A stretch of 41,380 bases of DNA from Kipferlia bialata (lineage: Eukaryota): NCBI GenBank assembly GCA_003568945.1, contig BDIP01000031.1:1-41380 (forward strand), given 5' to 3'. The notes below the pieces were generated by a model that saw nothing but the letters and a program-made list of their open reading frames with translations, made no database searches and was not told where the DNA came from. The position numbers and the translations under genes are program-made. This document shows positions 618 through 41,325 of the stretch, one piece after another. Every line of letters starts with the position of its first letter. The first letter of the stretch is position 1.

Positions 618-1250
618 TCACACTGCTGTCTGCTGCACTGGGTGGACAGACAGGGGGTTGGGTACCTGGGGGGGGTCAGGGGGGGAAGACAAATAGAAGA
701 GAATGAAACACCTCCATACATATATATCATTCATGTCCCTACCTGGGCCACTGCCTTTCTGGATGCCTTGTCCAGGGTCTTCTTGATCTTCCTCTTACGG
801 CCCTGGGGGTCAGTGCATATATATATACATATATACATACATATATATAGATATACTAGTGACAGAGTTAGCTGTATATATATGTGTAAGAGTCTTCTTG
901 ATCTTCCTCTTACGGCCCTGGGGGGTGAGGTAGAGGTAAACATACACAGGTCTGTAGCTATACTATGGCTATCCATATACACACACACACATATATATAT
1001 ATATATATGCCCTACCTGGAAATAATATATTCATAGTATATACACAATATCCACTGTTACCTGGAAGAAGTCCTCGACGTATCCCATGGCAGTGGAGAAG
1101 GTGCCACTGAGACCCACCACAGAACCTATGGTAAAAGGGTGTAGGGAGAGAGAGAGAGAGAGAGAGAGTATAGAACCTGGGGGTGTAAGNNNNNNNNNNN
1201 NNNNNNNNNNNNGAGAGAGAGAGTATAGAACCTGGGGGTGTAAGGGTGTA

Positions 1251-1292
<42 letters not shown>

Positions 1293-2725
1293 AGGTCCTG
1301 TTGAGACCCAGTGTATGTATGGCTTCGTACCCAGTGCCACTCCTGCAAATGCCCCCATGGTTGTCCTCATAGACAGGGTGGTGACAAGGGTGGAGTCCCT
1401 GGATTGAGAGTAGGGGGGGGGGGGGTATGCACACAAAGAAACATAGAGAGAGCGACATAGGGTGGTGACCAGGGTGGAGTCCCTGGGGATGAGGGTACAG
1501 GGGTATATGAAGAGAAAGAGAGAGAGAGAAACAGGCTGGTAACAGACCTGGAGACCCTGGGGGAAGGTGGGGAAATATATGGTATGGAGAAAGAGAGTTG
1601 GGGCAGGGGGAAGAGTATACACACTATCACACAGTGCATTGGTACCCACCTCACTATGAACTCGATCTCTGCCCCCACTCCATTGACATATGGGAACCGG
1701 ACGGTGTCGGCCTCATCTCCTGGGGGGTCAGGGGGTACTCATATGTATATAGATGTAGAGATAGTTATAGATCTATAATGACAATTATGTTATGGGAGGA
1801 TGGCCCATATATGGAGTTTATTGACCTTAGACGAGCTAGCCATAACACATATATGTTCTCCCCATATCAACATACACACTCGCATACCTGTCTGCTTAGC
1901 ATCGAGTTCCAGGTGGAACCCAGTGGTGAGAGTGCCGCCTGAGGGTGAGGGGGTCATATAGATAGATCATACCACATATAGTGGGCATATCCAGTCTCTA
2001 GGACTACACTCACCGTTAGACCCCGTTGCGTCCTGGAACAGAGATGGCGTGGCACCCACAGTCACTCTGCAGGGGGAGATGCCCTTGAAGACATGGCCTG
2101 GGGTGGGATTGAAGAGAGTCGTGCATATACACAAGCTAGACCTAGTGAGAGAGAGATATACCCACCTGCCGATGGCACCAGCTCGACTGATATGGATGAG
2201 TCCTCGTCTGGGACAGAGGACCCGAAGGCAACGCTGGCAGATACACTCTGAGGTGAGGGTAGTATATGGTTGCCTCCATGCTTGGGTATGTAGATTGTCC
2301 ACTATATGTACCTGTGCGTGTGCGTTGAGGCCTCCAAAGTGCACGTTGAGGAAGGGGTCAGTGTCGCTGGGGTAAGATGCACACATTTGAATACATGTAT
2401 ACAGAAAGAAACACATGTACTTATGTAGTGATTATGCGTTCGCCATTCTCTGTGGTATCCAGCGACATGATGAATACAATGTCCACTCACCTAGTTGTGA
2501 AGACACAGTCTGTAAAGCGGTACCTGGGGGTGAGAGAGAGGGAGAGAAGGGGGGATACACTCACCACTCTAACAGTGCACACTGGATATTTAGTCGATAG
2601 AGAATTTGCTTGGTAGATATACAACGACGGTCGTAACTGTACGTGGCATGAGTACCCCGTGGCCACTACGTTGCCTGTCACCTCAGTCCTCTGCCAGGCA
2701 CACTCGTGGGTCTGGAGTTAGGAGA

Positions 2726-2764
<39 letters not shown>

Positions 2765-5700
2765 GTGTGTGTGTATAGTGTATAGATCTACTTGTACTCT
2801 GTCATCTGCCAGGCACAGGAGTGGGTCTGGGGGTCAGAAGACATATGAATAGACATACATAGTCAGACCCATAATGTGTATGACAGTAGAGGGAATGCAC
2901 CCACCATACGGCCTGTATCGGGCAGTGTCTCTATGCCATCTGCAGTGACAGACAGAGAGGACGCACAGGCTGGGGTGAGAACTTCTCTGGGTGGTTATGT
3001 GTATATACGTATAAACACCCACCCCCGAACTGGTCTGGGTCTGTCCTATTGTATACCACATATATATATGTACATATATAGTATATATACCACATCTATA
3101 CTAATATCTGTGCTATATAAACTAACCCCCGAACTGGTCTGGGTCTGCCCTAATGTACACCATGTATTTATATATATATATAGTATATAAATATATATCT
3201 ATACATACACACTACATGGACTCACCCCCGAACTGGTCTGGGTCTGCCCTAACATATACCATATATATATACCACACCTATATATATATATGTCGTATAT
3301 ATATATATATACTACATGCACCCACCCCCGAACTGGTCTGGGTCTGCCCTGTCTGACACACAGTCTGTCATAGAACCGAAGAAGGAGAACTCAAGGTCAA
3401 CAGCGCCACTGGGGTTAAAGACGTACGACTACACTCAACGAAGAGATAGAAATACATGTATGCATATAGAGATGGATACAATCTTGACTCACACGAATGC
3501 TATCTGGGTTGCCGACTCCTCTGCCACCCCTAGTGATAGGGTGGACACTAGGAAGTTAGGGATGGTGGACTTGGACTCCTGGGGGTGAGGGGAAGAGGGT
3601 ATATACACACATGTATATGTTATTACATTCATATATATATGTATATATAGATATGTGGGGTAGAACCCACACAACATCCTGTCTATTCATACATGTACAT
3701 ATGTATACAATAACATCTCTATCTATCTATTTTTGTATACATATACCAGTATCTACATACCTGTATGTTGTCCTTGTAGAACCCTATCAAGAGGGAGACA
3801 GCCATGGCACCCCCAAACAGGTAGTACACCTGGGGGTGAGGGAGAGGGTATAAATAGCCCGGAAGACTAATGCAATACGTATACAATACACATCAGCTAT
3901 CCGTACCAGACTGAAGTACCCCCCTATCCTAGTCTGTCTGTTGATCACTGGTGCATGGTCATCGGTGGGGTGGTCCAGGGTAAAGCGGTCAAACCTCTCG
4001 ACGCGGATGCTGTTCCTATAGGGTGGGTATATATACATGTGTTTATGTACCAATGTGCACTGTTACACACCTGACTGGGTATGTGCACAGCAGCATAGAC
4101 TATACTGTATCCAGTATGTCTATGTATGAATATGACTGTGTGTAATACACACTGTGTATCCCATCATATATATATGTGTGTGTATATATATGTGTGTATA
4201 TCCTATCCCATATACCTGACTGGGTATGTGCACAGCAGCATTGCGGCCAGACACACACACAGCACACCGGCCACAATGTAGCACACCCTGGTCAAGGTCT
4301 GCACATAGCCTGGGGTCACAAGTGGCTGATGGGCATAGAAGTATATAACAAATATGAGTACTATATACAGATAGAGCGAGACGAAGGGTCCGCACATAGC
4401 CTGGGGTGAGAGAGGCCAAGACACATACTCTATATACTGGCATAGATACATCTATACATTCACACCCCACCTGACATCAGAGGCCGTGCTGGTGGCTGGC
4501 TCTCAGTGTCGTCCACAATCTCGGGCTCGGCTAGGGGTGAGAGAGACGACCATTGATACATCCCAGCTGACGCTGCCGTACTTGCACTAATAGTATCTTT
4601 AACAGTATGGAGAACACTGTATAGTACACACGTGTCTACATAGAATAATGCCAGGGTGTGTATCATCATATGTATCAACAGATGACACGTACTTGCGGCA
4701 CTAATGCTTCCGATGGGGCAGTACTCGTCGTCCTGGGGGTTGGATATAGAGGGAATGTATAAACTAATTGAGACAAGTGGCCAATAGTGAGAGGCAACAA
4801 TGTACATATGTATGTATATGTATACTTTGTACACACACCCACCTCACATGGCTGGCACTGGGAGTGGTCGATGGAGAGAGACCCATCCTCATTAGTGACA
4901 TAGAAGGCATGGGTGCCTGGTAGGGTGAGGGGGAGTGGCATATACACACACACACATATATATAGAATATCAACAGCCACCCACCCTCTGGGCAAGGTGT
5001 GCACTGCAGGTAGGACCTGGCCCCCAGTGTCTGTGAGTAGTACCCATCGGCACAGGTCACACAGGTGGTGTCAGAGACTGGGGGGTCAGGGAGAGACATG
5101 CAAAGATACAAACAGCTATATACATATATACAGAGACAGAGAGATATGTACCCTGACCTGACTTGTATGTGCCCATGGGACAGGGTGTGCACGTACCCCC
5201 CTCACTCTCTCCGACAAAGGAGGCGTCCCCACCCTCCATCTGCGTGTAGAAGGTACCTGGGGTCAGCGTATACAGAGACACTGTATATACGTCCTCTATG
5301 CAAACACATAGAGAAAGCACGAGTCGTACAGTATCTATATATATACATATCTATATTTTCCAATACCAATACCTGCGCTGCACGAGTCGTAGAGCACCTC
5401 CCCCTCTGTATCCCTGGCAGACACAGGTGTCAGCATGGCTGTGTACAGGTCGCTGTTGCCACTGCCCTGCATATTAGTATTAAGTGTATTGATTATAGTA
5501 GTACAAAAAATATAGTATATAGTATACCTCTATGTACTGGGTCATTGATGTCCTCCAGCCACCGTACAGGTATATCCTGTCACCATGGTACTGGTAGGCC
5601 ATGCCGGCTGGGGGGTGAGGGGGTACAAAGTAGAGAAGACACAGAGGAGCTATAGATGGAGGAGATAGAGTCGCCACTGTACATACCTAGCCCCGGGAGC

Positions 5701-8700
5701 ATGTCACCTGTACCGTCCAGACTGAAGGGTGAGGGGATAGACATAGAGGGTCAAGAAGGGGGAAGGAGAGTAGTCTGAAACAGTACAGTAGTCTGTGTGA
5801 CGGTAATAGTGTATATATACCTCAGAAACACAACAACATTAAACACAAAGACTTCCCTAGAGATGAGTAATGCGTCTCCCCCTACCTGAGCACCGTGTTC
5901 TCGATGGAGTGTATCAGTACCAGTATATATGGAGTGTATCAGTATCAATGAGATATTTCTTCTGATGATGCTATCCATCCCTACCTCAAGACCGCACTCT
6001 CTATGGAGTGCTGCGCTGGGTCTAAGGTATGGACGTATCTGTAGTTGAACACCGCACTCCACATCCTGCCCCCCAGACACAGCACGTGCCACCCGGGGTT
6101 GGTAGGGTTAGTGTCAGAGGTGGATAGGTCTGTGTCTGTAGACTCAGAGTCAGACTCCAACTCCGGGAAGGGCCACTGGGGGGTGAGATAGCACTATACT
6201 ACAAACACTGTAGAATGAGTGTATACTAGTACGACAACCACCTGCACAGGTATGGCTGCATTGTCCACTAATAGTGTATGTAGTATATAGTATACAGATA
6301 CAGGCCTTAGTATGTATATGTAGAAATTATATATAGTACCCACCTGCACAGGTATGGCTGCATTGTCTACTCCATTGTGCACCAGCTTGGGTGGGCTGTC
6401 GGCCTCATTGTCGGGACCGGCTGGGGGTTAGCACAGAGAAAATGCAGGAACAATTAATCCTGAAAGTGTATACATGTGTGTTGGGATTGGATGGGCGGTA
6501 ATGGATGGTGAATAGCATCACTGAGACGAAGTTGGACCGGTTCCCTAATAGGGAAGGATGTATATCAATCAGAGACTTCATATATACGTACCTAGGTACT
6601 GGTAGCGTCTGAACGTGACCTCATCTGGGCCCAGCTCTGGAACATCACCCTCATCTCTGTCACTACCGCCTGGAGGTGGGAAGGGTAGCACCATCAAGGT
6701 TATGGTCTCAGTGAAAGTGTCTCTTTATGAACACATATATAGAGACAGATACACGCCTGCACCTGCAGGTGGGTCAAGGGTAGTATCTCCTATACTAACA
6801 AGACATACAATAATAGACTTGTGTCTGCATATTAATGCATACCTGCCCCTGTCTCTGCCTCTCCCCACATGTCAACAGACACCTCATACCTAGGGTCAGG
6901 GGTGATACTGGGCATATTCTGATATCTAGGGATACATTATGACCAGTGCTCAGTCTCATGGGATTCTTTCCAACACAAGTTTTCCGTACCATCCGTAGTT
7001 GGGTGCGTTACTGGCCAGCACCCCTCCGTAGAGGAACATCTTGCCGTTGATGTTGTCTAGGTGACAGGTCTCCATGGCAGGGGGGGTGTTGTCAGAGACA
7101 TACGCATCATACTCTGCGTCAGTGAAGGGTAGACCAGTGTCAGAGTCGGTGGGTCTGGTGAGGGGGTTCAGGGTGAGCTCAACCCAGGTCTGGGGGTGAG
7201 GATACACTACAGGTCCGGCAGAATGTATACATATACCTAGGTATCTATGTCCACTAATCTCTATACCTTAGACCTGAGGTCGAACCTCCACACACCTAGG
7301 TTATATATACATGGTATCCTTCTGTATATCTCTCTCTATATACCTTAGACCTGAGGTCGAACCTCCACACACCTAGGTTATATATATATAGTATCCTTCT
7401 GTATACATCTCTGTACCTTAGATCTGAGGTCGAACCTCCACACCTAGGTTATATATATATAGTATCCCTATGTATACATCTCTATACCTTTGACCTGAGG
7501 TCGAACCTCCACACCTAGTTATATATATAGTATCCTTCTGTATACATACCTTTGACCTTAAGTCGAACCTCCACATGGCACTGGAGAGAGAGCTGGCTGT
7601 CCTACCTCCATAGGCATAGCTGGGGGTGGGGGGTTAGGTGTATATATATACAGGATGCTATATATATACATATACATATGTGTGTGTAAGTATACCCCAT
7701 AGGCATAGCTGGGGGTGGGTGTACATATAGAGATATACACAAACAATTATAAATAATGTCATTTATATAGATGTACCACATAGGCATAGCTGGGGGTGGG
7801 TGTTAAGATACACATATATACATAGGACAGGTACATACGGTGATACATAGACACACACGTATGTATGCACCAATATACATAGCTGGGAGGTTGTGGGCGT
7901 GAGGTCATACTATACAGAGTTGAACACACTCACATGCTGTTGTCTGCCAGCAGTGTACAGGCACTGCTCGTGGGTGGGTACACGTCCCCAGTGGTGTACT
8001 CGTTGGGGTACAGCTGCTCCCAGGTGTTGGTAGAGAGCCAGAAGACCCAGATGTCGTTGAGGAGGGCGTCTGGGGGTGAGACAAGAGAGAGTATGACTCT
8101 AGACAGTACTGACTGTACAGCTGTATACCTAACTCTGTGTCCTTGCCCAGCATCACTAGCAGGTTGCCCCCCCAGCTGTGCATAGAGTGCCTCTCCCTGG
8201 GGGTTAAAGGGATACACACACCAAGATATATCATGGGAGTATAGGGTGTGGTACAGTATCAATATCAATAGCATACAGACTTAGGTGTGCATGGAGTGCC
8301 TCTCCCTGGGGGGTGAGGGGAGAGGGGGTATACATGTCTAACAACATAGAGGTAATGGATAAGATATACACATGTAACTACATACAAGTACACACCTAGG
8401 CACCGGCAGGCTGAATGAGGGTGTGGGCACCATGGACCAGGTCTCCTCGTCCTCATCGGCATTGTCTATGCCTGGGTGGGTATATGTAGAATACATATCC
8501 ATCCATACTACAATTGTGGCTAACAGCCTGATGTATTTGCTACGTAGCTCTGTATACCTGCTGCCTCCACTCCCATGTCCAGTGTCCACAGCATGCTGGC
8601 CTGGGAGGGGGTGTCTCCCCTGGGGGTGAGTATACACATGTAATACACACATAGGTATAAACACATAGGTATATAGTGGGCTAATACCCCTGAGGGCCAG

Positions 8701-11700
8701 TGTATACATAGACACACGTGTATGGGTGTTGCATACTACACAACCCCTCCTCCCATACCTATACCCCCCAAATATGTACATGTTCTCTCCCACCACAGCT
8801 GATGCAAGGAGGGAAGACTCGGGGGGGGATATCTGGTTGCTGGGGGTGAGACACTAGCATATTGACTAATTGAGAGAGAGAGAGGGGACATGGTTGCTGG
8901 AGGTGAGATGTGTATAGATCTAGAATGTGGAAGCTTTTGGTACAATACTACACATCTCTCTGCTCTCACCTGAGCAGTATCTCGTACTCCGTTGTGACCT
9001 CCCCCCCTTCCCCTTGGACATTGACACTGCTAGACATGCAGTTGGAGGCACCCTCCAGCTCCATGTACCCACCAAAGTAGAACATGTCGGGGGAGAGGGA
9101 GGACACGGTGTCTGGGGGGAGAAGGGGAGGGAGAACGATGGGTATAATATATACACTCCAGTAGTCTAGAGTGGCATGGGAGAAATGGGCATTGAGGGAT
9201 GCCATGGGGTGTCTAACTGCACTTGATGACCGATACTGTCCCTGACATACCTGCTGTCTCCACTGTCCACTCGTGCACAGGGGGGACCATACAGTTGTCC
9301 ACTGGGGGTGAGTATAGAGGGTATGGCATAAGTATATGGGCGTGCATCACTGATGCAGGATGAGGAGGACTCGAGTGTGGTATACCGACTCTACTCGACC
9401 CAGTAGGAGTACTGAGAAGTCCAACTACCCCCTACCTCCGTCGTTAGCCACTGAGTACTTGTCGGGTGTGTTCTCAAGCACATTCCACCTCTGGGGGTGA
9501 GATACACGTGATATACAATAGGTAACCAACTCATGTTCAACTCACACACATATAGTCCATGTACCACAAATGTACACTTCACTGTACTACACCCAATCCA
9601 CATACCCAGAGTGTGGGGTCTGTGTACTCCCCGTTGAATGATAGGATGACACCGTCCCCCCTGTCCCGCTGGGCTATGCGGAACCAGCCATACCTGGGGT
9701 GGGGGGGGGTATCTTCAGGGAGGACAATGTCAATACAATAACCCCACTCCTACATAAATATCCATATATATACATATACTAATATATATACATATACCCT
9801 GCACTCACATGACGATGAGGCCATCCCGCATGAGGTACTTGTTCCTGTGCTCATACACACCCTCTTCCTCAGTCTCTGCACAGTAGAGGTCACAGTCCAG
9901 ATACACCTGGCACAGGTACCTGGGGGGAGGGGTGTATATATATATATATATATATATGGGTATACAGCATATGTGTATTCTATATGTATCTACATAGGTC
10001 AGAGTCCAGATACACCTGGCACAGGTACCTGGGGGTCAGTATAAACCAGAATATATACCCATTGTACAATTTTATACTGTATATATATGTATACACATCA
10101 GTCCAGACACCAGGTACTTGGGAGAAGGGGGGTGATATAAATACAGTAATCCACTGGTGATATACACCAGTGCATGGATATACCTTGGCCCCGGGTACTG
10201 GTCCTCCACCGACTCTGGGTCAAAGGTGGGGAAGTTCGCATTGGCCGTACCCGTAATCTCCACCCACTGTGGGTTGGGTGTGTTGAGACCAATGTCCACA
10301 ACCCACGTGTCCTGGGGGTCGGGGGTCGAGGCATAGTTGCCAATGCGGCCTGGGGGTTACTATTGGAATGTACATATAATAAAAATGAGAATATACATGA
10401 AGAGAGGTATAGCAGAGGCTGCCTTGGGAGTCACTACTAGGTGTTACATTATTCAACAGCTGATGGGCCACACAATTACAAAGTGCATATACACACTGGG
10501 TATCTATATGTATTGAACACATACATGAATACCTGAGTATATGATGAGCCACACGTGGAGGGGTATGGCCGAGGTGGGACTGGGCACAACAAGCACACCC
10601 ATGCTGGCAGCCTAGGGGGTGAGCATGCATTATTATATATATATATACATGTATACATACACCCACCAACCTCCCTAGCGCATGGGGCCTCCCCCCCAGG
10701 GGACAGCTGCTCCCAGCTGTTGTTGACAACGTCATACCGCCACAGCTCATCGATGAAGCCAGTGGGGCCTGGGTGAGATACATACATCTACACATACCTA
10801 CATATAGTGTGTACATGTACATGTGCATACCTCTCCCCCCGTAGACCAGTGCGTATGGTAGCTCCTCCCACAGGGCCTCGTTGGTGGGGTCAGAGGGGTC
10901 GACCTGATGGTGGGGGGGATGGGGTATCAGTGGTACATGTACTGTATGTTCACTCTATACCGAACTACACCATACCTTGACGTCTGTGTACACCTCACAG
11001 ACCTGTCTGTACCTGGGACCAGGCCAGTCTGGGGTGGGAGAGAGAGAGTGTGGGTGTGTACTCATAACTGGGTATGTAAAGTATTGATACACTCACCTGA
11101 CCCCCCCTCCCTCGATATCTCAGCCCAGATGGAGTTGGGTGGATCGTAGGCATACCTAGGGTCAAGGGGTAGACGGTATACATTCAGATGTATCCATAAA
11201 TCGATATGGAGAGGGAGAGAGCATACTGTCGATCACAGTCACACTCATTGTATGAATTAGTATTCAAAGGACGGGAGGTCACACTCACATCTTGGACGAT
11301 GCCCCGTTGTCTGTGAGTCCTGCAAACACATAGAACAGTCCATCATGGGTCCACCCACAGGAGTAGCCTGGAATGACAGGATGTATAGATGAGTGTACAT
11401 ATAGAAGTATTGATGGTAATGTGATATATATATATATATATATAAGTATATACCATCATGAGTCCACCCACAGGAGTAGCCTGGGGGTGAGGGGGGAGAT
11501 GCATGTACATATACATTGGATTGGCTATCCACACACCCAATACATATAGATACATATACATATAGATACATATAGAGTATGTATATAATCCTCCCTACCC
11601 ATGATGTCTGTCTGTGCCCCCAGGGTGGTATCACTCCTATCAATGTATATACATTGTATGTATAAATACACACCCGTGATATCTGGCTGTGCCCCCAGGG

Positions 11701-12690
11701 TGGTATGGATATGCACTCCTATATACCAAGTAGACATAGATAGTGCATGTATATATATACAAATATATATATATACCCGTGATGTCTGGCTGTGCCCCCA
11801 GGGTGGTGTAGTGATATACTACTAATGTAGCATGTATCTATATATATCGATGCATACCCGTGATGTCTGGCTGTGCCCCCAGGGTGGTGGCACTGGAGAA
11901 GGTGGGGGAGGAGGCACCGTCCTGGGGGTGAGGGATTAATATATATATAGTATATCATAGTATATGTACATTATAGTATATATATATATATGGGTGGGTT
12001 AATAGATGTGGGGGAGGAGGCACCATCCTGGGGGTCAGGGAGCATAGGTATATATATGCCACTTTTATATATATACATGAATATATCTTACACCCTATAT
12101 CCACGTATAGTCATCTACTTACCTGCGTGACGTGCATCTCCCAGAGGTCTGTCAGGCCCATGCCCCCATAGATGAGGCACATCGGGTCACTGGGGTGAGG
12201 ACAAGGAGGAAGGTGAAGGTGAAAGACAGGGAGATGATGGGGGAGGGGGGAGGAGAGAGAGAGAGAGCTGTCGTCATAGATGAGGCAAATGGGTCATTAG
12301 GGGGGGGGTATATCAGGAAGAGAGACAGAGACAGAGAGACAGAGAAGTGGTCGAGCACATCAGTGGGACTGCTGGAGGAAATAGAGTGAACACTCTTGGG
12401 GGGGAGGTTCAGAGGGGGAGAGAGAGAGAGTGTGTGTGAGAGAGAGAATGAACAGATGACCCATACACCCATGGGAGGAGAGAGAGAGATCTGTGAATCC
12501 ATATGTATGATATATCAATCTGCAGCAGTGACTCACTCTGTGTCTGGGATGAACTGTATCACATCTAGATCTATAATGGGGAGTGGTAAATACATATATG
12601 AGTGAATATGGCAAGGTATGTGTGGCTATGACTCACTCTGTGTCTGGGATGAATTCTATCACATGGCCCTCTCTCTTGGGAGGGGGGGTC
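618..12690 (-). CDS. Multi-exon (about 45 exons) receptor-like membrane protein: N-terminal Kelch repeats, Cys-rich GCC2/GCC3 (ephrin-receptor-like) repeats, two TM helices, extracytoplasmic loop, third TM, short basic tail; 5' end lost in the gap
   Basis: Hand-spliced exons are phase-compatible. Kelch: TPPPKREGHVIEFIPDTD|DPMCLIYGGMGLTDLWEMH (12637-12690, 12123-12189), ELWRYDVVNNSWEQL, R.ERHSMHSWGGNLLVMLG, IYAYGGRTASSLSSAMWRFD, KMFLYGG, RIYLYGGW. Cys-rich: CTPCPMGTYKS, CVTCADGYYSQ, CTPCPEGT, CQPCE.DEYCPIGS (about 4690-5256). TMs: VCYIVAGVLCVCLAAMLLC, GGYFSLVYYLFGGAMAVSLLIGF, MGAFAGVALGSVVGLSGTFSTAM. Last exons GRKRKIKKTLDKASRKAVAQ (743-802)|VPNPLSVHPVQQTAV-TGA (618-620). Confidence 0.85.
1146..1290. 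repeat. (GA)n microsatellites around a 23-N gap, with duplicated GTATAGAACCTGGGGGTGTAAG
   Basis: Seen directly; lies in a gene A intron. Confidence 0.9.
2723..2774. repeat. Compound (AT)n(GT)n microsatellite (intronic)
   Basis: Seen directly. Confidence 0.95.
3018..3350 (-). repeat. Tandem array (period about 100 nt) of exon 3' end + donor: 1 exonic copy plus 3 echoes
   Basis: ACCCCCGAACTGGTCTGGGTCTG(C/T)CCT at about 3021, 3125, 3224 and 3324 (exon). Confidence 0.95.
7263..7575 (-). repeat. Tandem array (period about 65-77 nt) of exon 3' end + donor: 1 exonic copy plus 4 intronic echoes
   Basis: Plus-strand unit TACCTT(A/T)GA(C/T)CTGAGGTCGAACCTCCACA at about 7264, 7341, 7415, 7485; exonic copy TACCTTTGACCTTAAGTCGAACCTCCACA at about 7547. 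Confidence 0.95.
11596..11890 (-). repeat. Tandem array of exon 3' end + donor: 1 exonic copy plus 3 echoes
   Basis: ACCC(G/A)TGAT(G/A)TCTG(G/T)CTGTGCCCCCAGGGTGGT at about 11597, 11672, 11775 and 11856 (exon). Confidence 0.95.
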
Positions 12691-12740
12691 CTGGGGGTGG
12701 GGGGGGGGGGGATAGAGAAGGGGGGGGGGGGGGGACAGAG

Positions 12741-12901
12741 NNNNNNNNNNNNNNNNNNNNNNNNNNNNNNNNNNNNNNNNNNNNNNNNNNNNNNNNNNNN
12801 NNNNNNNNNNNNNNNNNNNNNNNNNNNNNNNNNNNNNNNNNNNNNNNNNNNNNNNNNNNNNNNNNNNNNNNNNNNNNNNNNNNNNNNNNNNNNNNNNNNN
12901 N
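12741..12901. other. Scaffold gap (161 N) flanked by G/C homopolymers
   Basis: N-run; genes A and B are both 5'-truncated at it. Confidence 0.98.
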
Positions 12902-12970
12902 CAGTGTCACTCTGTGCCTCACTCTGATTCCCCCCCCCCCCCACTCTCTCTCTCTCACTCTACTCTCACT

Positions 12971-13180
12971 CCAAGGGACTGTCTCCCTCCAGTTCCTGTT
13001 TCACTTTGTGATGTCTTCATTATTCTCCCTATCTTTCTCTCTCCCCCCCCCTTCTCATCTTCAGGGACCCTGTCTCCCTCCAGTACCTGTTCCACCATGT
13101 ACTCTCTCTCTCCCCCCCCCCTCTCTCACTCCCAGAGACCCTGTCTCCCTCCAGTACCTGTTCCACTCTGTGCTGTACAT
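12971..13180 (+). repeat. Acceptor + exon 5' start repeated: 2 echoes plus the real exon
   Basis: CTGTCTCCCTCCAGT(A/T)CCTGTT(C/T)CAC at about 12979, 13070 and 13141 (exon), each preceded by an AG. Confidence 0.93.
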
Positions 13181-13445
13181 ACCTGAGTCAGAGAGGGTGG
13201 ACTCAGAGTACTTCATGTATGCAATGTACGTTAGTAATCTCAGTATTTCTCTTCCGACTTTTTCCTCTCTGTTTCCTCTCTCTTTCCTTCCTCTCTCTTC
13301 TTCTTCTCACTTGGAGGGTCTGACGTTGTCTGCAACCTGCTAAGCTCACTTCATTCTCTCTATGTGTAATTATCTTTCTCTCTCTACCTCCTTCTAACAC
13401 ATCAGAGGCTCTGATGCTGTCTCCATCATGGATTCACTACTCTTC

Positions 13446-13486
<41 letters not shown>

Positions 13487-22400: not shown

Positions 22401-22832
22401 GGTGTCGAGTGTGGAAGTTACACTGATCTACAAGGTACATACTCTATCCATCCACACACCAGATTGCGCATTATAATTTTATGGTGTATATATGGCCATC
22501 TCACCACTCAGGCCCCCTGGTGGTACTATGCACTCAGTGTGATGACTCTGCTCCTTCTCTCTCTCTGTGGATATGGGGTGTATGTCCACATGACTAGGGC
22601 CGCCAAGGAGAGACAGGTCGGTGGTATCAACACCCTTATATTGCATATGTTGATGGTATACTTTCAGTTTCTCATCCACATCATCCTTTATTACTTCATT
22701 ACGTAGTGGCCTCTTCCTTATATCCAGGGATACGCTCCGTTGGCTCTGGGTGGCGTTGGATACTCTGACACAATCACTGAGTCTGGTACTGAGTCTCCAG
22801 ACACGACTGACGTTGTTAGCATCAAGGAGTAG
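13136..22832 (+). CDS. Multi-exon type-I membrane protein with FG-GAP-like beta-propeller repeats alternating with Ser/Thr-rich Ig-like beta-sandwich domains; 5' end lost in the gap
   Basis: Spliced peptides: IGSDAVSIMGDTLVVCD, SGTVFVYRYQSGTDTWDLVTQI, GLFGASVAIDGDLVSAG, IGGSMQLRDGTLVT (FG-GAP-like); FEVSLSDSEGNK, FTVSLYDASGALL (Ig-like). TM WWYYALSVMTLLLLSLCGYGVYV (about 22512-22590). Final exon GYAPLALGG...VVSIKE-TAG (22830-22832). Not every internal junction was checked. Confidence 0.8.
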
Positions 22833-29800: not shown

Positions 29801-32800
29801 TCACTGCCCGGGGAATCAGGGAGAGTAATAGTGGTTTCTAGGGTCAGTCACAGCAATATACAATCACGGACCAATACTGTATCTGAGTATAACAAAGAAC
29901 ATACCAAGTGTTCCAAATCCTGTTGCACTGACAGGTACGACCATGACGCTGTTAGCTACGGGCAGCCCGAGGTAGAGGTACCCGCCGTCGACCTCAGCTG
30001 CCTCGTGTGCCCAGGGCCAGTTGGAGACCACGGTCTTGAGCATCTCTCCACCCACGAACCCGTAGGAGTGCAGCTCGGAAGTCTCACTGGATATGCCGGC
30101 ATACACTGCGACCGTGACCTCTGCATCTGAGGCTATGAGTGCACGGGCCATGTTGGCATCTGCTGCATCATAGTCAAAGGATGTGACGACAGCGTGGGAG
30201 GCAGTCATGGCATAATCGGAGCCACTGACTGTGATGGAGCTGGTGAGAGAGAGGTCAGTCACGCGTCCACCCATGAGGGTCAGAGTGTATGTGTCAGCAG
30301 TGGATGGACCCATAAGGCTGACAGAGTACCTGCCGTCCCTATGGGACTGCACAGGGTAGTAGATATCATTGAAGTGGGCAAACTGAGGGACATAGCGGTA
30401 TGGAGCATGGATGATGGTGGCTCCACTGGCGTCGGTAAGGTGGAAGGAGAGAGTGGTGTGCTCCCGTGTAGTAAGGGTCCAGGTGGAGTCTGGGACTATC
30501 GACACCGGTAGCGATGTGCCTGGGGTAGCAAGGAACGCATGTCCAGCAAACATGGTCCCTATGGCCAAAGGACTGCCAATGAGAAGATGAGCTCTGTCAA
30601 GCGAGACACTCTCTCCAAACCGGTGGAGGGGGTCGGGGTTGAGAACCCCATTGAGGAACATACCAACATCCACCACCCGCTCATAATCTCCACCCAGGCT
30701 GCTACGCGGTGTTGCAATGTGGACAACGTTGTTGGAGGTGTCAGTGCTCTCCGGGTCGTTGGTAGAGAGGGCGATGTACTGTCCGTCTGTGCTTATCCTA
30801 CTTGCCATGCCCCAGTCAATGTCTACCCCAGAACCTGATGGCTGGACATCAGCCCTGTGGTTAGGCACATGTATGATATGCTCAGTTCCTAAGAGAGACT
30901 GAATGATCTAGATTGCAGAATATTAATGAATATGTACAACCCACTAACCATACGGCAGTTGTCCCTGCCTCTACGTCCACGTCATAGCGGTATACCAGCT
31001 TGACCTCGCAGCCCAAGCACTTTGGAGAGGAGGCGAGGCCCTGGGCTCCGAGTCCGGCATACCACCCATTGCTAGCACCCTCCACCCACTGCATATATGC
31101 CCCAGTCACAGCCTCATACGTGTATGGGTATAACCTGCCACCATCCTCTCTACCAATAACTAGAGAGGTGCCAGAGGAGAAGACAATGGTGGTGACGAGG
31201 ACATCACCGTGGCTAGAGGCTAGAACAGTGGGAGCAGGGACACCGAGGTCATTGGACTCATACATCACCACTGGAGCAGCAATGGCGGCTCCGACAGCAA
31301 GACGGAACACACTGTCATCATAGTAGAGGGCGATGGTCTGGCCATACCCGGCATTCTCTGGGAGTCCAGAGAGAGCCCTTGAAGGATATAGGGTGGAATT
31401 CAGGCTGAATGTGTTGGAGTCAGTGTCCAGAGTGTAGATTAGCACTGCACTGTCGTCTGTGCCCACGGTATCGGCCTGGCCTATCACCAGTATGTCATCG
31501 GCCATCGCAAGGGATGTCCCAAACCCAGACACGCCGGAGCCCACGCCACCAGCACCTGGGTACATACTCTGTACATACACTGGGGAGGCTGATGTATCCT
31601 TATCATACCTGGAGTGAGCGACACCATTGATACTCCAACCAAATATAATTAGTGCACATTGTATAACGTACTTGAATATGTGCACTGCGTCTGTATCGGG
31701 GTCAGATATGGCCATATAGGGGAGAGTCATTGCGGTGACAGTGCCAAATGTAGAGGAGGCCTCGTATCCAGAGGGTAGGCTGTCAACCGGGACAGAACGG
31801 AGGTTGGAGAAGGGGTAGTAGGCCACTACACTCTCGGCACTGGAAGTGTAGGTGCCTGATGTGAGAACCCCCACACAATAAGCAATGTGTGAGATAATCA
31901 CTAACTTAGAGGACAGGTGTCGTCGTACCAGCTATAACCGTGATGGTTCCAACGGCATCATCCATTGTAACATCAGTACAGAACATCTTCTGATCTGCAT
32001 CATACACGGTGGAATACCAGTCGGACGCTGTGCCGACAACGTTTAAGGAAACGGAAAACGCCTGGAAAACTGGGGGTGAGAGGATTGTATTCAATAATGA
32101 ACAGTGGTTACAAATAGGTGAGATACAATACCTGGGCGGTCTGACGAGTCAACTAGAGCGACGCAGACAGGTACTGGGCTCCCAACTATCAGGGAGTCGT
32201 AGTGCAGAGTGTGATCCACTGGAGTCGAGTTAACCGAGTAGGATAGGGTCAAGTTGCCGGCGTTCACAGTGACAGTGGCTGTCGAGTCCCCGACGAGACT
32301 CATGACCGTAGTAAGGGTACACGTGTACATAAAAGTACTGGAAGTGAGAATAAGAAAGAGATACAGAACACTAGAAGTAGAGTCCTTGAACAGTAGTACC
32401 TAGAATCAAAGGAACACGAGCTCCCAATATCAATGCTGACAGTCTGCTCGGTGGTGTTGACGTGGCCGTTGACATTCAAAAGCCAAAGTTCAATGACACT
32501 GTGACCAATCATGAGTGGGTTTGCCTCCACCGAGACTGGAGACCCCTCTACAATTGAGGTAATCTGTGTGGTCCCGGAGTTCAAGTAGAGGGCACCGGCA
32601 CGCTGGGGTGAATAATTGGATAGATATACTGCAGCGCTTGGTGTCTGGATGAATGTGTCTGATGATACCTGGAGTACGGGCATGATGCTATCAGTCTGCA
32701 TAGCGGACACAGTGAGTTGGGAGTCGGGGGGTAGGTACATCGACACAGCGTATGTGCCTGAACCCTAGAGTAAGAAGAGAGAGCGAGGATGGTAATTATG

Positions 32801-35800
32801 GACAAGACGCTAGAGCTATCGTACCTCGTACACCATCACCATTCTCTCGTACTCGTAGCCTGTCACCATGGCGTAGAGAGGATACTCTCTGTCGTTGACT
32901 CCATCTGTTGTAACCACAGTGTCTGTGCTGTCATACAACCTCACTCTCACAGTCTGGTAACCAGCATAGAGTGGTGTCCCGGAGATGATCGAGTAGGACA
33001 AGTACGGGCCACTCTCGTATATGGCGACGAGGCCAGTAGTGGCTGTGGGGTAAACACCGGCATTCAGGATGACATCCCTGGATATCAGAATACCCGAGAG
33101 AGAACTATAGTCACAGTACCTGAGAGGATCCGCCCTTCTTGGGAACCCTACCACACAAATGCAAGTGGTACATATATATCTGAATATACCTATATATACC
33201 TATATATATTCAATACTATATATACATATCTGGAGTGTACCTGTACATGGCCACACTGGAGAATGCCTCGGTCGAGGCCAAGGTGGAGTCAGAGTGTGAC
33301 ACACGGACAGTGTTGTAGAATCTGTCGGTGGACCGTAGAACGTTGAAGGTGACAGAACCGGGGTCAGTGCGACCTGAGAGAGTTAGAGATACCGAGAGAC
33401 CTAGGAGTACTATAGTAAGTGAAGGAAAGAAGAGGGATACAGCCAAACCTGTGGGGCTACAGCCAATGGCGATAGTGGTACCACTCAAGGCAAGAGAGGC
33501 TCCTGAGAAGTACTGGTCTCCGCCAACTGTGCCCGTCCTGTGGTAGACGGCACTACCAGTAGAGACATCGTAGAACTGGACAAAGACGCCATATGTGGCA
33601 TCGACAATCTCTGCTACAGCCACTATGCCGCCGTCCATGGACACAGCGACACCGTGGGTGGTGACGTCTGTGCCCTGGTTGAAGGCGGTTACATAGGTCC
33701 AAGTGCCTCCAATCTTCTGGTAGAGATACGAGTCTGAAGTCAGTTGCCAGGCAAAGCGGTACCGACCCTACATCAAGGTTATACAATATATATGAATGTA
33801 TGAAGAATCAACAGGAGGATCAGTCAGAACTTACAGTAGCTGTTTGTCGCAACGACAAGTCTGTGGTGAATGGTTCCGTCATATATGTCCTCTGTGGCGA
33901 GTCTGTACCCAAAGAACTCCGTGGCGACGGACCCCTCCAGGGTACTTGTCTTGTACCAGGAGTCATAGGTGGGGAAGTACTCGTATGTCCTCACCACTCC
34001 AGTGGTAGATGCCCCACTTTCTAGATAGGCACCAACAGCAAGGAGTCTAGGGGACAGGGCGAGGCTACAGCCATACATGCCGGCGGCGCTTCCCGAGATT
34101 TCCTGATATCAGAATCACTAGTCCTAGGAGAAAGCTACACAAAAAGGACTCTACCTGTTTGCGTTTGTACTCCCCATCTTCGAGTTGGAACAACAGAACA
34201 TGGGACACAGTGTCTCCAGACAGGACACAACGGCCAACAGCGAGGTAACCATTGGACATGGCTACCTATGGTTAGGGTAAGTAATTATACTCTCGATATT
34301 GGAATGGTGAAATGGATGCATTTGTATATGAACCTGCGCTAATAAAAGTAGAAACACAAGTGCTGTAGAATCATGACACATACCTGGTATGCGATGTCAG
34401 CGGAGGGATCGCCACCAGCGACGTACACATCAAGGGACCCATACTCCTCAAAGTAATTGTTTGTCCCGGCCTTGTAGAGGGTGACACCCTCAATGGCGTC
34501 TCCTCCCACTGCGGCCCACCCCTCATCCAGTGCAGTCGTGTAGTTCCCAGAGGTCTTCTCATACTCAAAGAGGGACTGGTGCTGCTGGAGCACAACCGCT
34601 GAGTGAGTACGAAGTGAGAGATGAAAAGTGTACTAATACGGCACTCACTTTCCATCTGGAATACATCCACTGTGCTGTAATTGTTGAAGAGAGTCAGGGC
34701 TTCGGTCCCAACAGCCTCAGCCTTAACCGTATCCTCAAAGCACTGTCTAGCACCGTTCCAGGTGACAGAGGACGCAGAGCCACTAGCGAGACTGGCCTCC
34801 AACAGAGAAAGGTTCCCCTGATGTGGGCATATACATAAACGATATCAAAACACTGAAGAGAGGTCAAGAATTGACTTGAAGAGAGGAATATCCAATACAT
34901 ACCAAGTTGGCGATGCCATTCTCGTCTGTAGTGTACACGCACACATCAGTCTCTCCCAGGTAGGGCAGGCGAAGAGAGTCCACTGCAGCAGATCCAGCGG
35001 CAGACGCCTGCATGGCAACCTCAACAGGACAGAGCAGGGTCTCAGCGACTCCTATTATGAGTATGGGAATCATTAAGACTAGCACCAGTGTTATACATAG
35101 GGAAGTGCCCACCTGCCACAGCCACACTGAGGGAGTGGGTACCAGCCCCTGGGTAGTGCTGGGTCCCCTTCCACTTACAGGTGGCGGCATCGTACACCGG
35201 AGTGAACCCAGACCCAGTACCATCGGTCCACTGATGGATGAGAATACATATATCCGGATATCCTCTGCCGAACACATATAACATAGTATATACAATTACT
35301 GCTAAATACCATTGATATACTGAAACAGAACATCTCTCTTGAAAGATGTACGTACCGCAACATTGAGGGTCAGGGCACCACCGCATACTGGGTACCCTTG
35401 GGCGTTGAGGATGGTGATGTATATGTCGTCTGACATATCATACAGCATCTGATCCACGACACAGGAGGTAGGGGTGCCCACAGTGGTGACAGAGGTCTGG
35501 ATCTGATGGTGAGAGAAACCTACACGGTGTCAAACTAGTGAATGCTAGAGTACGATACTCACCTCATGTGGCTCGTTCCAGGAGGCAGCGAGGGTGGTTC
35601 CCAAGAACCCAGATACCCCAACATAGGCGGAGATGGTACCAGCCGTGTTACCAAACACTGTCCCAGTATATGCCCCCTCATCGCTGGAGTACACTAGTCC
35701 TGACTCTCTGGTAAAACCATCTACCGAGTCAAAGTGCGACACAACGGAGAGACCAGTCACAGGGGATGAAGTAGAGTCGGTGATCTCAACCGAGTAGTCA

Positions 35801-38476
35801 ATGAGACCAGGCTCTGAGGTGACGGGAGTGGCGTCAACGTACACATCGACACTCTCCAGAACAGGGAAGAAGGGGCGCCCTGTCGAGTAGAGACCACATA
35901 CTGCAACACGCTTGTTGGTATGATCAACAGCAATGTGGCGTCCAAAGTCACTGCCAACGGTATCAAAACCTGGAGGTGAGTGATCAGCACACTATAATAA
36001 CACAGTAGCAGATATTCTCAGTCGTACCTCTTGTGGTGACTGAGTAGGTCACGCTCTTGTCTGGGGATGGGGTGTATGTGACCATGCCCCTCGACACCCC
36101 TGCATACTCTTGTCCCGGAGACCCTATCAGTACTGCCCCATCGAGCAGGGCGACGGCCGCACCATACTCGATACCGTCCTTATCGAAGCTATCGAATTCA
36201 CCCCAAGAACCTGACTGCTTTTCAATGTATACCACCTCACTCAGGGTAGATGACGTTATTGTGGGTACACCTACAACCATGAAGGTGCTTGAGACAGCAA
36301 GGGAGATGTACTCCGCCTCGTACGTATCTGGGATAGGGGTCACGTAGGTCTGAGCCCATGCTCCAGCACTGTAGCCACCGGGGTAGCGCTCAAAGACACG
36401 AACACTCGACCAAACACCTCCTCCGGGGCAAGTGCTTACCGCTAGGGTAGATGCATCAGCAGAGAGGGCGAGCTTGCATCCAAACCCACCCTCCGTGGCG
36501 GCCGCTCCAGAGATTGTGTGGGAGAGAACCCAGATACCATCCTGTTGTGAGACGTTGGCAATGTGGAAACACAAAAGAGATCTGACACTACATTTATATA
36601 TAGACGGATATAGTGTATTACCTCAATACCATAGACATAAGCATTGCCGTTGCCATAACCGGGGGCTCCGACTACCATAGTATCTCCCTCCATCTCGATA
36701 GCAGTTCCAAAGAGGTCAGGCTGGGAGTGAGACTGATACTAGAACGTCTAGTGAATACTAATGTATTGTGAAAGTCTGTCACTCACCATTCCCGCTTCCC
36801 CTGGGTTCAGCGTCTGGTGCCATATCCACTGGTTGTCCCAGGTGACCTTATACACATACACGTTACCAGGGGAGAATCCCTTGGCGCCTACAGCAAGATA
36901 GACTCCATTGAAGGCAACGGCACACCCGAACTTGGAGACGGAGGACGGCGTGGACATCAAGAGGGTCTCAACCGCGTAGCTGTTGACGTTCTTGTTCATA
37001 CACTTGACGGACCCATAGCCATAGGTGCGGCCGACAATCACCCAGTCGCCATGGATGGCAAGAGAGTCAACAGGCCTGCCTGAGGTGATGTGGGCCTGTC
37101 CATACACACTGGCTAAGGGTATGGAGACTGAGGCCTCGCGCAAGGGAGCGGCATCGGTGTTGGCAGAGATGGTGGCGGTGGAGCCGGCTGTGTAGTAGAG
37201 GACGTTGAGGGAGACAGAGGACCCATGGGGTATGTGGACGGATGTGTCCGACGTGTACTGGCCGTATCCCCCATCAACACCCAGATAGATGGCAGTGGTG
37301 TCACCCTGAGGTAAGTATTGGCAGTAAATGGTAGAACAGTCCAAAAGCTAGAGATATACATAACAAATACATATCAATAACGTACCCCAGGAGCGACAGC
37401 CTGTCCGGCAACCTGGACACCAATCACGGCATCTCCATGCATGTCTTGCAGGTAGGTGAAGTGCGGCCCATACCCCGGTACATACCCGTCCCCCCACTGC
37501 AGCATGGTATCACTCCTCAGCATATCAACAGTGTTGCTGCCGGTGCCCCCACTCCGATGGTAGACTATCCCATACCCCTGCCCGTCCCCATGGGCTACAG
37601 AGGAATCGACAGTTAACCCGTAGGTCCCATAGGTCAGGTCAGTCTCCAACACGTTGTGGACCACGGCGTAGTTGTCAATGGTACTGTCCCACTTGAACAC
37701 AACCATCCTGTAGGCGTAGTTGGTAACCACGAACATGTACTCATTGTAGAGCGCAATGTAACGTCCAAACTAGCGTCAGGCTATGGAAAGTGAGTATAGG
37801 ATACCGCAAATCACTTGTAACTATATACATAAACACTGGTCGTACATAATGGTAGGTTGCTGGGTCCTTGATTGTCTGGATCGGCCCAGTCCAGTAAGGA
37901 GTGACGGAATATGACTGGTACCTGAGGGGTCAATATGGGTGAATACAACAGCAGGGGGGCAATCAGGAGTCTATATATATAAATGTGTGTGTGTGTGGCA
38001 ATGCAATATAGGTGAACAAAGGACACGTACGAGTATATGAATATGGATCCAGCGTTGGTCCTGGCGTTTGGTGCACCAATTGCAATCTTTCCATCATAGA
38101 TGGCCAGGGCATTGGCGAACCCTCTCACGCCGCCTGGTGCCGTAATGGAGTGCTCTATCCCTGGAATGTAAGAGGATGATACATTCACCGTTACACACGC
38201 ATATGTATACACTCACTCACATAGATACATCGTAGAACCTACCTGACTCATCGAAGATGTAGCACTTTCTGTCGGCGCCGTCGTTATTGACCAGGCCCAC
38301 CGCCACATGGCCCTGTATGGGATCGATGGCCACCGATGTACCGAAGTAGGTGTCAGCCTAAGAGTCAGAGGGGCTAGGAACAGCAGCACACGGCGAGAGA
38401 CGACATAGGAACAACGCAAAGGTACTGGATAGTGACTAGACATAGAGATACCGAGGAAGAGATGGCCATGACGTAT

Positions 38477-38512
<36 letters not shown>

Positions 38513-41204
38513 CCAAAATATATTGCACACATATCGACGGAGATGTCCCTGGCATGATATAAGAACCACACACACACACACAGTCGCACACATATACATA
38601 TACACATACATATATAATACTATACTATATATACTATATACTATGTACTATATACTATACTCTGTTGAATTATAGACATACCGATGGCGATGTCCCTGGC
38701 ATAATGTCCCCCAGCATGGTCATGGAATGGGAGGTAGAGTCCCAGCTGGGTGTGAGACATGGATACATGGGGATAAATGACTTAGAGACTATATATACAT
38801 TCCGTGAATCTGGGCTGAGGAATCCGAGCTGCAGTGTGGGAGACAGTGAATACATATTCACCACATTATTCAGATATATTACCTATGAAGCTACTGTACA
38901 CATCATGTGCATAGTACATAGAAGACAGAATAGCAACATTCAAAGAGAGACCAAGACCCTACCTGTACTTGGTACACTTGCCCTTGTTGGAGTCATAGCC
39001 ACTGGAACAGGAGACCATGACACTACCTGTTGTTAACAGAAACAGCATGGAGGAATAACAGAAACATATAGAAGAACAGCAATGTACAGAAACAGGCACA
39101 ACACAACACTAAACCAATTAACAAAGTGGAAATGGAAGTACGTACCTTGCATATCAATTGCTCCGCCGAATTCCGCAGCTCCAGAGGGACCGTCCACCCA
39201 TGGGTTGGTGGTGTCCATGGTCCAGGAGGTACCTGTGTCAATTATAGAAAACAGACTCGACATAGAAAAATTATCAATGAGGATACTGATACTGATAATA
39301 CTTCTTGGTCAGTCCAGGAGATACCTGCGTCATCAGTATCACATACATATACTGTATAGATACTGACACTGCCCTTACCTCCGTCATCAATACTATTGTC
39401 TCACAATAGTATATATATACTGATACACACAATTATATATACAGATTGACACTGCCCTCACCTGCGTCATCCAGATAGTACACGATGGTGGCACCAGTGC
39501 CATCACGGCCTAGGGTGAGAGAAACGTAGTGCAAAGTTAATATATGTACATATTGCACTACACGCAGACCACTAGAAACATGAGAGAGCAGAATATACCG
39601 TGTCCACTATATATAAACATATAATGAAAACAATACAGTACTATATACTATACCTGGAGCACCGACTACCAGGACCCCCTCTGCCATTGCAATATATATA
39701 TAATACAAACATAATACTAATGAATAATACTACATACTATACCTGGTGCACCGACTACCAGGACCCCATCTGTCATGGCTATGGCCTCTCCGAACCTGGC
39801 ACCTGCTACTGCACCTGGTGTCAGAATATGTATATATATATACATATATATATATACATCTATCTATCTATCTATCTATATATATATATATATATATACC
39901 ATATATTAAACCATTGATACATACGTATATATAAATATAGGGATACCTGGGTCGGTAAAGGTATCCACACAGCCCCATGCAGTGGTGTGGTGCCTGGAGT
40001 ATATCTGGACACGGCCTGTAGATGAGAGACACAAGGAATACATATATATATATATATATAAAGAGAGAGAGATAGAAGGAGAGAGAGAGAGACAGAGAGA
40101 GAGAGAAGGAGAGAGAGAGAGACAGAGAGAGAGAGAGGGAGGAAAAGAGGTTAGAACACACCTCTGCCTCCCCAAGATGGGGAGCCCAATGCTAGCCAGT
40201 CGCCCCACACGGCCATACCAAGCTGGTGTGAGAATGGTAGGGAGGGCGATGTACAATCCAAGTTAGGTAACTGATCGAAGTCTGGTAGCCTTCAGAGCTT
40301 ACCCTAGCATTCTTGACTCCCCGTCACATAGTACAAGTCTCTTTAAACACCTACCTTATGTTCGGAAACCCCGTCTGCAACCGTGCTCTCAATGGTCCTA
40401 AGGGATGTCATCTGAGTGATGCTTCTACCGTGATAGATGGGAGTCACTTCATCTCCACCCCATGACCCAATGGCATACCGGTACGGGGAGAGGGACATAC
40501 CCACCCTCACCGTGTAGCTACGTGAGGTATCGAGTACGGCAGAAGTGGCAGGGGAGTAGTGGCCCGTGTTGGCGTCGTAGGAGAGGGGTATCTCCCCGTC
40601 CTGAGAGTACCGAGATGGCAAGAGGGAGACATCTGCGTCTGTGACGTCTTCGCCTGAGGAGGTCACGGCTATCCCAATCTCTGCAGTGTCTCCATCATAT
40701 GAGGGCACGTACTGGTGGGAGACAGACACCCACTTCTCAGACAGAAGGGCATGGCCACCTGGGGGTTAGAATATGTATATACATATATATTTACTATACA
40801 CATGTATATATGTAGAGAGACAGATATCCACTTCTCAGACAGTAGGCCACCTGGGAGTGAGAACATATATTATATGTATATATAGTAGAAATATACCATC
40901 CATATACATATGTACAATATATGAATATATATGTACATACTATACAGTCTTCATATAAATATGCATATATATACCTGGCTGTGAGGTGCATGTCCCCGAT
41001 GTACATGGGAAATCTCTTATACTTATACGCAATAATATACGTATATATATATATACAATTCCATATATACATATATATATATAGGCCATCCACACCTGGC
41101 TGTGATGTGCATGTCCCAGATGTACATGGGGCTCCCATGACCACCTCCTGTGTCCATGCATCCCTCAGACCAAGGGAGACACTCCGGCCCAGCATAGACC
41201 CTGC
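26862..41204 (-). CDS. Very large multi-exon secreted/surface protein with many FG-GAP-like propeller repeats interspersed with Ig-like domains; continues beyond the window end
   Basis: Repeated FG-GAP-type motifs: LGRSVSL..VVMGAP (41096-41204), DGVLVVGAPG, FANALAIYDGKIAIGAP, FGCAVAFNGVYLAVGA, MEGDTMVVGAPG, YGAAVALLDGAVLIGSPG, FGTSLAMADDILVIG, FGESVSLDRAHLLIGSP, FGTALALDVETLAVSA, FGTSIAMSGGRLLVSSP. Long ORFs 26862-27956, 28387-29628, 29864-30868, 30882-31901. The junction checked at about 28042/27934 is in phase. No C-terminal TM seen; could be more than one gene. Confidence 0.8.
40039..40140. repeat. (AT)n followed by imperfect (GA)n microsatellite (intronic)
   Basis: Seen directly. Confidence 0.95.
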
Positions 41205-41325
41205 CTAGGAGGTTAAATAGATAGAGAGAGAGACCTAGAAAGAGAGAGACACACTCCTGCCCAGCATAGATCCAGCCTAAGAGGTAAGATATTCAGATGT
41301 ATACATACACACATATACATAGGGG

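Follow-up and report, generated by a model that had tools for sequence, protein, structure and literature searches.

Why should an intron carry copies of the very exon ends, splice sites included, that border it? Kipferlia bialata is a free-living protist, a metamonad belonging to the fornicates, and a 41,380-nt stretch of its genome (GenBank assembly GCA_003568945.1, contig BDIP01000031.1; below, the window) raises this question in three genes, here called A, B and D. A preliminary description reported that many of their introns contain short direct repeats of the adjacent exon end together with its splice site: exon 3′ end and donor downstream of an exon, branch point or acceptor and exon 5′ start upstream of one. 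We call these copies echoes. The present analysis covers this one window, the three genes and one sample, and finds the echoes to be real: a known kind of duplication at unusual density and at both types of splice site, mechanistically mostly ordinary, with an asymmetry between exon and intron parts that is left unexplained. The reading we prefer, with a probability of roughly 55%, is that small duplications across exon–intron junctions were tolerated by splicing and had their exon parts refreshed by recombination.

The window is eukaryotic DNA dense in introns. Dynamic programming and hand curation of genes A, B and D yielded 126 GT-AG introns, with the branch point 4–9 nt from the exon start; echo counts refer to these genes, with genes C and E outside them. 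One exon of gene A matches a single protein at 100%, K. bialata KIPB_000295, and the gene A model agrees with the public protein P0001 at 1,361 residues, two donors having been shifted 6 nt to fit that protein. Its exons from 743 to 2969 are joined in an RNA contig.

Exon-only queries (score at least 24) found the intron-facing exon end copied in the adjacent intron at 23 of 252 junctions, that is, the exon 3′ end in the downstream intron at 11/126 and the exon 5′ start in the upstream intron at 12/126, against matches in 0.05% of 32,004 tests with non-adjacent introns. This bears out the central observation of the preliminary description. Exon-middle 30-mers gave 0 matches in 500 comparisons with adjacent introns. 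The earlier statement that no copy stands in the opposite arrangement also holds, both for the opposite exon ends at the same threshold (0/110 and 0/110, or 0/220) and for reverse-complemented ends (0/252). The surprise it attached to this fixed polarity does not: when a duplication runs head to tail across a junction, the outcome can only be a donor copy downstream and an acceptor copy upstream, so the polarity is uninformative, and any other arrangement would need the copying of a whole exon or intron.

Queries spanning the junction produced 46 matches at 35 of 252 junctions (empirical p≤0.025, at which about 6 of the 35 are expected by chance), and 43 of the 46 cross the junction. Such alignments recovered 39 of 45 previously listed positions at the same p. 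Positions 12971, 13061 and 41244 align as well, with scores of 57, 63 and 52, in partial unmodeled introns that have no null. Two of the recovered positions, 5317 and 15686, mark copies that fail to reach the junction, by 7 and 14 nt; 10099 is weak (score 23), and 1168/1222 comes down to a 7-nt match (score 14) within one identical block flanking a run of Ns. The curated set comprises 31 events and 41 copies in 27 introns, and its counts exclude the weak matches at 5317, 4577, 18448 and 19472 and a second copy at 1531.

Echo-bearing introns make up 27 of the 126 (A 16/50, B 7/38, D 4/38) and 22 of the 25 introns of at least 190 nt; echo-free introns have a median of 88 nt (10–90% range 61–162). 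Duplicated units account for 23% of intron DNA overall and 31% in gene A. The word "pervasive" holds only within limits, and the echoes are clustered: of the 148 junctions in gene A plus the 5′ portions of B and D, 30 carry them, versus 1 of 104 in the compact 3′ parts, a division of regions chosen after the data had been seen. Gene D echoes are confined to its 5′ part, and echoes concentrate where exons are short. Two regimes can be told apart, a dense one at 622–12690 (12.5 introns/kb, median 134 nt, G+C content at third codon positions [GC3] 0.71) and a compact one at 26862–38242 (3.2 introns/kb, median 73 nt, GC3 0.61); by gene, GC3 is 0.71 in A, 0.62 in the 5′ part of D and 0.61 in its 3′ part.

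Might the echoes be a product of assembly, arising where contigs that overlap or represent two alleles were joined end to end? The published draft was built from short reads and is fragmented (PMC5874029), the 1168/1222 pair consists of identical copies on either side of a run of Ns, and the sequencing run that we compared, X1, may be the origin of this DNA, in which case it supplies a second assembly and not a second sample. We nevertheless hold an artefact to be extremely unlikely. Sampled 31-mers of positions 700–9000 are 97% present in X1. At contig level, where the read evidence spans 700–3000, contigs containing the echoes at 889, 1459 and 2797 have depths of 445–483 and other pieces 344–501; this is single-copy depth, not half, which argues against stacked alleles. 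Two of 30 bins (931–1007 and 1162–1238) lack X1 coverage, which carries no weight either way. Moreover, the copies differ from one another and spread over a range of ages. Separately, an identical block of about 35 nt lies on both sides of the run of Ns at 1154–1250 and is probably a scaffold overlap counted twice.

Very probably the echoes are leftovers of small, local, head-to-tail DNA duplications across junctions. Their exon parts are 9–45 nt long, and the period from echo to true junction is 50–147 nt (median 100). Taken together, the intron sides show homology: anchored alignments give a mean z of 1.76 (n=31) as opposed to 0.40 (n=124) when the introns are unrelated (p=6e-6), and colinear intron sides are clear at 15731, 15973, 22254 and 7343–7487. 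An alternative source would be new filler DNA, such as an element, a satellite or untemplated synthesis, inserted at a staggered break, with the echo as a long target-site duplication. In 21 of 31 cases the filler lacks an individually significant match to the original intron, and several fillers exceed the remaining intron in length; against this, filler and remaining intron are colinear in aggregate, and within the window the ten best cross-intron matches of either of two BLAST runs are microsatellite tracts, with no element family among them. We regard filler as quite unlikely. The same matches, the relatedness of filler to remaining intron, and exon parts that vary from 9 to 45 nt with no fixed short length led us to reject an introner or transposon with a target-site duplication.

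The preliminary proposal that recurrent junction-spanning duplication builds the long introns is thus supported, while nothing points to a dedicated system or to targeting of junctions. Scanning 1,094 windows gave no real intron-internal duplication, although fast erosion would conceal such copies. The exon piece is at most 45 nt long in 31 of 31 events, when uniform breakpoints in exons would predict 14.6 longer ones. Using an echo would cause a frameshift or reach a stop codon in 38 of 41 copies; those at 1482 and 6241 are among the exceptions. The limit fits a filter imposed by splicing, and a size limit of the mutation itself could contribute.

Which splice site, then, is used? The evidence comes from a 4,322-nt contig of run X2, taken as RNA by guess; the contig is spliced at CT..AC ends, the canonical ones. 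None of the acceptor echoes at 917, 1482 and 2826 is used in it, and past 2970 it enters the true exon, bypassing the three donor copies at 3016–3250. All six copies tested, three acceptors and three donors out of 41 curated copies, are therefore ignored in this one contig, and P0001 likewise lacks every gene A echo, in line with the preliminary claim that the innermost site is used. Upstream of exon 802 the contig measures 3,989 nt versus 3,988 in the echo-free model, a match that fits zero echo use across gene A, provided that the contig begins at the first modeled exon. The skipped sites would make introns of 53–167 nt, near the normal range, and the echo scores higher than the used site in all three acceptor pairs (19.4/18.2 at 917, 16.3/9.3 at 1482 and 18.2/15.1 at 2826).

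Exon definition, which the preliminary description took to be implied, is a fair inference here because nearer decoys that would give normal-sized introns, some with a better consensus, are ignored; it rests on a single contig, which drops minor isoforms and hides decay, so mRNA decay could mask some mis-splicing. Splicing to 1482 would preserve the frame and introduce no stop codon, and decay alone cannot hide the use of that site. Neglect of decoys is unusual, as short protist introns are expected to be recognized across the intron, that is, by intron definition (PMC2397502). Of 174 spliceosomal proteins surveyed, K. bialata has 87 (PMC6679479).

Might the echoes instead be selected decoys that tune expression through mis-splicing or aid spliceosome recruitment? 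In 10 of 15 cases the highest-scoring echo acceptor beats the acceptor actually used, but this trend is not significant (p=0.14), and on a second score the used acceptors are no weaker than others in gene A, so we dropped the notion that echo acceptors are the stronger sites. Old echoes have lost GT or AG and the RNA contig uses none, which makes such a function very unlikely.

The asymmetry between the two parts of an echo is the more demanding problem. As the preliminary description noted, exon parts are conserved (738/784 identical, 94%) and intron parts eroded: identity is 224/239 in the ten exon bases nearest the junction, stays at 47/48 for GT/AG and drops to 102/144 at intron positions 3–8. 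In the array at 3016–3250 the exon parts match at 25/25, while neighboring intron parts differ at 11/58 and 16/59 (19–27%). Intron parts are unusual in being eroded far beyond the age implied by the exon parts, and plain duplication leaves this unexplained. Similarity of intron parts even falls as exon identity rises (rho −0.43, p=0.015).

A simpler account would have plain tandem duplications with no refreshing, the intron parts mutating several times faster than exon-derived DNA in the same intron through slippage in TA-, CA- and CT-rich DNA. It needs no extra process, and simple repeats abound in these introns; drift affects both copies on the intron side and just one at non-synonymous exon sites, and detection favors intact exon parts. 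It meets three difficulties. When divergence is simulated with 10–15% substitution and as many as 0.2 slippage indels per site, 77–100% of pairs can still be detected by the same local test that finds 2 of 23; the degree of erosion does not follow TA content (rho 0.06); and the echoes at 15731 and 22254 retain their intron side with exon sides at only 71–73%. We take this account as a possibility, though a distinctly weaker one.

That exon parts are refreshed by recombination through exon homology is, in our judgment, somewhat favored. At 15686–15730 an exon block matching at 30/31 adjoins a diverged, junction-proximal block of 14 nt, which looks like a conversion patch. Refreshing suits the lineage, since metamonads, which lack nonhomologous end joining (NHEJ), presumably rely on homologous recombination, and this lineage is reported to be without NHEJ and Rad51A and dependent on recombination (PMC8516963). 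Among changed codons, 19 of 34 are synonymous, against 25% expected of a neutral copy.

Several points weigh against this preferred combination of duplication, tolerance and refreshing. Taken one by one, just 10 of the 31 intron sides reach significance. Hand-added echoes of low identity drive part of the negative correlation, and exon identity is biased upward, since it was the exon part that served to detect the echoes. The synonymous excess is marginal against a fair null of 40–44% in which the true exon drifts too (p=0.044 at 0.40 and 0.11 at 0.44). The young array at 7263–7513 decays evenly on its exon and intron sides. DNA contigs over 2.3 kb show no variant letters and so offer no divergent allele, and metagenome scans turned up no outgroup or second strain: a scan with P0001 gave 15 pattern matches, none confirmed, and an acceptor-pair pattern gave 119 stretches, of which 118 were screened and none combined the K. 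bialata motif with its TA profile, the four read by eye being unrelated repeats. A homologue search with one gene D exon found nothing.

Identity that steps down sharply at the junction also invites the idea that repair templated by transcripts or cDNA writes or corrects the exon part. RNA-templated recombination has been proposed for fornicates (PMC8516963), and the segment 39312–39334 matches its own spliced junction at 19/20, a match found in 1 of 126 introns and in 0 of 15,750 controls. That it occurs in a single intron speaks against the idea, and the same result would follow if a donor echo and an acceptor echo had been joined by a deletion at microhomology, given that this exon end resembles the acceptor. 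The other echoes have GT or AG and intron-side homology, which mRNA lacks. Templating by RNA is accordingly an unlikely source.

To return to duplication with refreshing, the process might run as follows. A break or template switch would duplicate 50–150 nt across a junction; selection would pass a copy only if its exon piece is short and escapes recognition as an exon, and such copies would be kept since splicing uses the copy adjoining the full exon. Echo and true exon end could then mispair through 20–35 nt of identity, crossovers giving arrays and conversions, possibly from the other allele, resetting the exon part as low-complexity intron parts diverge. A bolder version, in which recombination through exon homology between alleles, perhaps with transcripts, keeps writing and refreshing exon ends in introns, is the main engine of genome-wide intron growth, and is tolerated through the strict exon definition of a reduced spliceosome despite introns of about 90 nt, seems to us doubtful.

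Known systems offer partial parallels. Human F7 intron 7 (IVS7) holds a variable number tandem repeat of 37 bp with 5′ pseudo-sites (PMC1557585), the same anatomy at one junction, so the preliminary remark that no description was known went too far. There, too, the unit spans the exon–intron boundary in direct orientation (43/46 here, 0/252 inverted), the intron parts of copies are homologous head to tail (here in aggregate, 10/31 individually), and intact pseudo-donors follow the true donor, of which only the most upstream is used. F7 differs in being one junction of one gene with near-identical units and donors only, whereas Kipferlia has 31 events in three genes, mostly of two copies, with donor and acceptor types and eroded intron parts. 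Scanning from 5′ to 3′ accounts for donor choice but not for the skipping of upstream acceptor copies. A multi-copy minisatellite of near-identical units was rejected for the Kipferlia case, as just 6 of the 31 events contain multiple echoes; Tandem Repeats Finder reports just three such arrays.

Flanking exon length is said, after Reed and Maniatis in 1986, to decide between twin globin splice sites. Engineered duplicated globin sites compete, and position decides (as summarized in PMC1557585); those of Kipferlia are natural and numerous, and occur in a metamonad with the small spliceosomal complement given above (PMC6679479). In the Rogers model, tandem duplication of an AG/GT segment brings intron gain (PMC3265369). 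The resemblance lies in a short intragenic tandem duplication concealed by splicing, but that model makes a new intron from exon sequence, while the Kipferlia duplications copy a junction that is already there and enlarge its intron. Gain of this kind was rejected as an origin, with a boundary run of 2.85 versus a null of 2.88, the 5′ side below null and the 3′ side slightly above it (4.55 versus 4.33 of 12, p=0.03). Recursive splicing at AG/GT ratchet points was set aside too, only 3 of 15 acceptor events starting with GT.

As for the source of the duplications, flap duplications in yeast rad27 are one replication-linked comparison. These and the small tandem duplications that arise at DNA breaks (PMC8355091) are direct copies of tens of bases and a plausible source, although they come with no splicing filter and no exon/intron asymmetry. 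The portions available of the Kipferlia genome paper (PMC5874029) and of the spliceosome survey (PMC6679479) make no mention of echoes, and a search of the open-access literature gave, among the matches listed, no description of such copies in Kipferlia or gene-wide.

Table 1. Genes A, B and D and their echoes in the window.
Feature	Coordinates	Strand	Remarks
Gene A	622..12690	-	51 modeled exons; Kelch-repeat and cysteine-rich protein; 5′ end lost in N gap
Acceptor echo, A	889..924	-	26/26 exon nt; skipped in RNA (joint 801/1060)
Acceptor echo, A	1459..1486	-	beats used acceptor in site score; in frame, stop-free; skipped in RNA (joint 1397/1649)
Older weak acceptor copy, A	1531-1560	-	same intron as 1459..1486
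Acceptor echo, A	2797..2830	-	skipped in RNA (2711 joined to 2905 at contig positions 3407/3408)
Array of three donor echoes, A	3016..3250	-	25, 25 and 24 of 25 exon nt; period ~100; RNA goes on into true exon (contig alignment ends 2970)
Donor echo, A	4069..4096	-	26/26
Acceptor echo, A	4387..4407	-	junction-query alignment
Older donor echo, A	5880..5911	-	junction-query alignment
Donor echo, A	6238..6269	-	27/28
Young array of four donor echoes, A	7263..7513	-	period 62-77; neighboring intron parts 89-93% alike
Two acceptor echoes, A	7693..7800	-	junction-query alignment
Acceptor echo, A	8283..8312	-	junction-query alignment
Acceptor echo, A	8884..8908	-	junction-query alignment
Acceptor echo, A	9996..10035	-	32/33
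Acceptor echo, A	11453..11484	-	strong acceptor, then GT after 27 nt; possible in-frame 27-nt mini-exon, missing from P0001
Array of three donor echoes, A	11596..11808	-	junction-query alignment
Acceptor echo, A	12008..12039	-	junction-query alignment
Decayed acceptor echo, A	12275..12302	-	junction-query alignment
Donor echo, A	12529..12564	-	26/28
Two acceptor echoes, B, partial first intron	12964..13095	+	outside 126 modeled introns
Gene B	13136..22832	+	39 exons; ab initio model only
Two acceptor echoes, B	13314..13431	+	junction-query alignment
Short donor echo, B	13637..13653	+	junction-query alignment
Acceptor echo, B	14272..14304	+	junction-query alignment
Old donor echo, B	15047..15093	+	junction-query alignment
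Donor echo, B	15686..15790	+	period 116; intron side colinear (78%)
Clean 50-nt tandem duplication across donor, B	15960..16006	+	
Old donor echo, B	22212..22310	+	absent from preliminary description
Gene D	26862..41204	-	39 exons; 3,388-aa open frame; FG-GAP and Ig-like matches; ab initio model only
Donor echo with broken GT, D	38529..38558	-	junction-query alignment
Two donor echoes, D	39312..39388	-	inner one abuts copy of next exon's start
Donor echo, D	39646..39693	-	junction-query alignment
Acceptor echo, D	40817..40862	-	junction-query alignment
Donor echo, D	40973..41009	-	33/35
Acceptor echo, D, partial first intron	41245..41285	-	outside modeled introns

Some observations concern the setting. 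Genes A and B diverge at 12741–12901, each losing its 5′ end in one gap of 160 Ns; the gap looks too small for both lost ends, and the scaffold join may be loose. The reading frame of gene B appears to break within exon 18950–19248, through a frameshift, an assembly error or an unmodeled 52-nt intron. Two more genes lie at 23082–24681 (minus strand) and 25022–26480 (plus strand), one of them with Kelch repeats. For the first 21 residues of P0001, inspection by eye suggests that they come from the opposite strand of the gene B acceptor echo at 12941–13011, across the N gap; they are likely an artefact of gene prediction.

Echoes, then, mislead gene prediction, and their further meaning depends on how widely they occur. 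If they are genome-wide, one small class of mutation would explain most long introns in this lineage, and many natural twin-site experiments would be at hand on how a reduced spliceosome chooses its sites. The pattern of fresh exon parts beside stale intron parts also offers a means of gauging short-range conversion in a lineage that lacks NHEJ.

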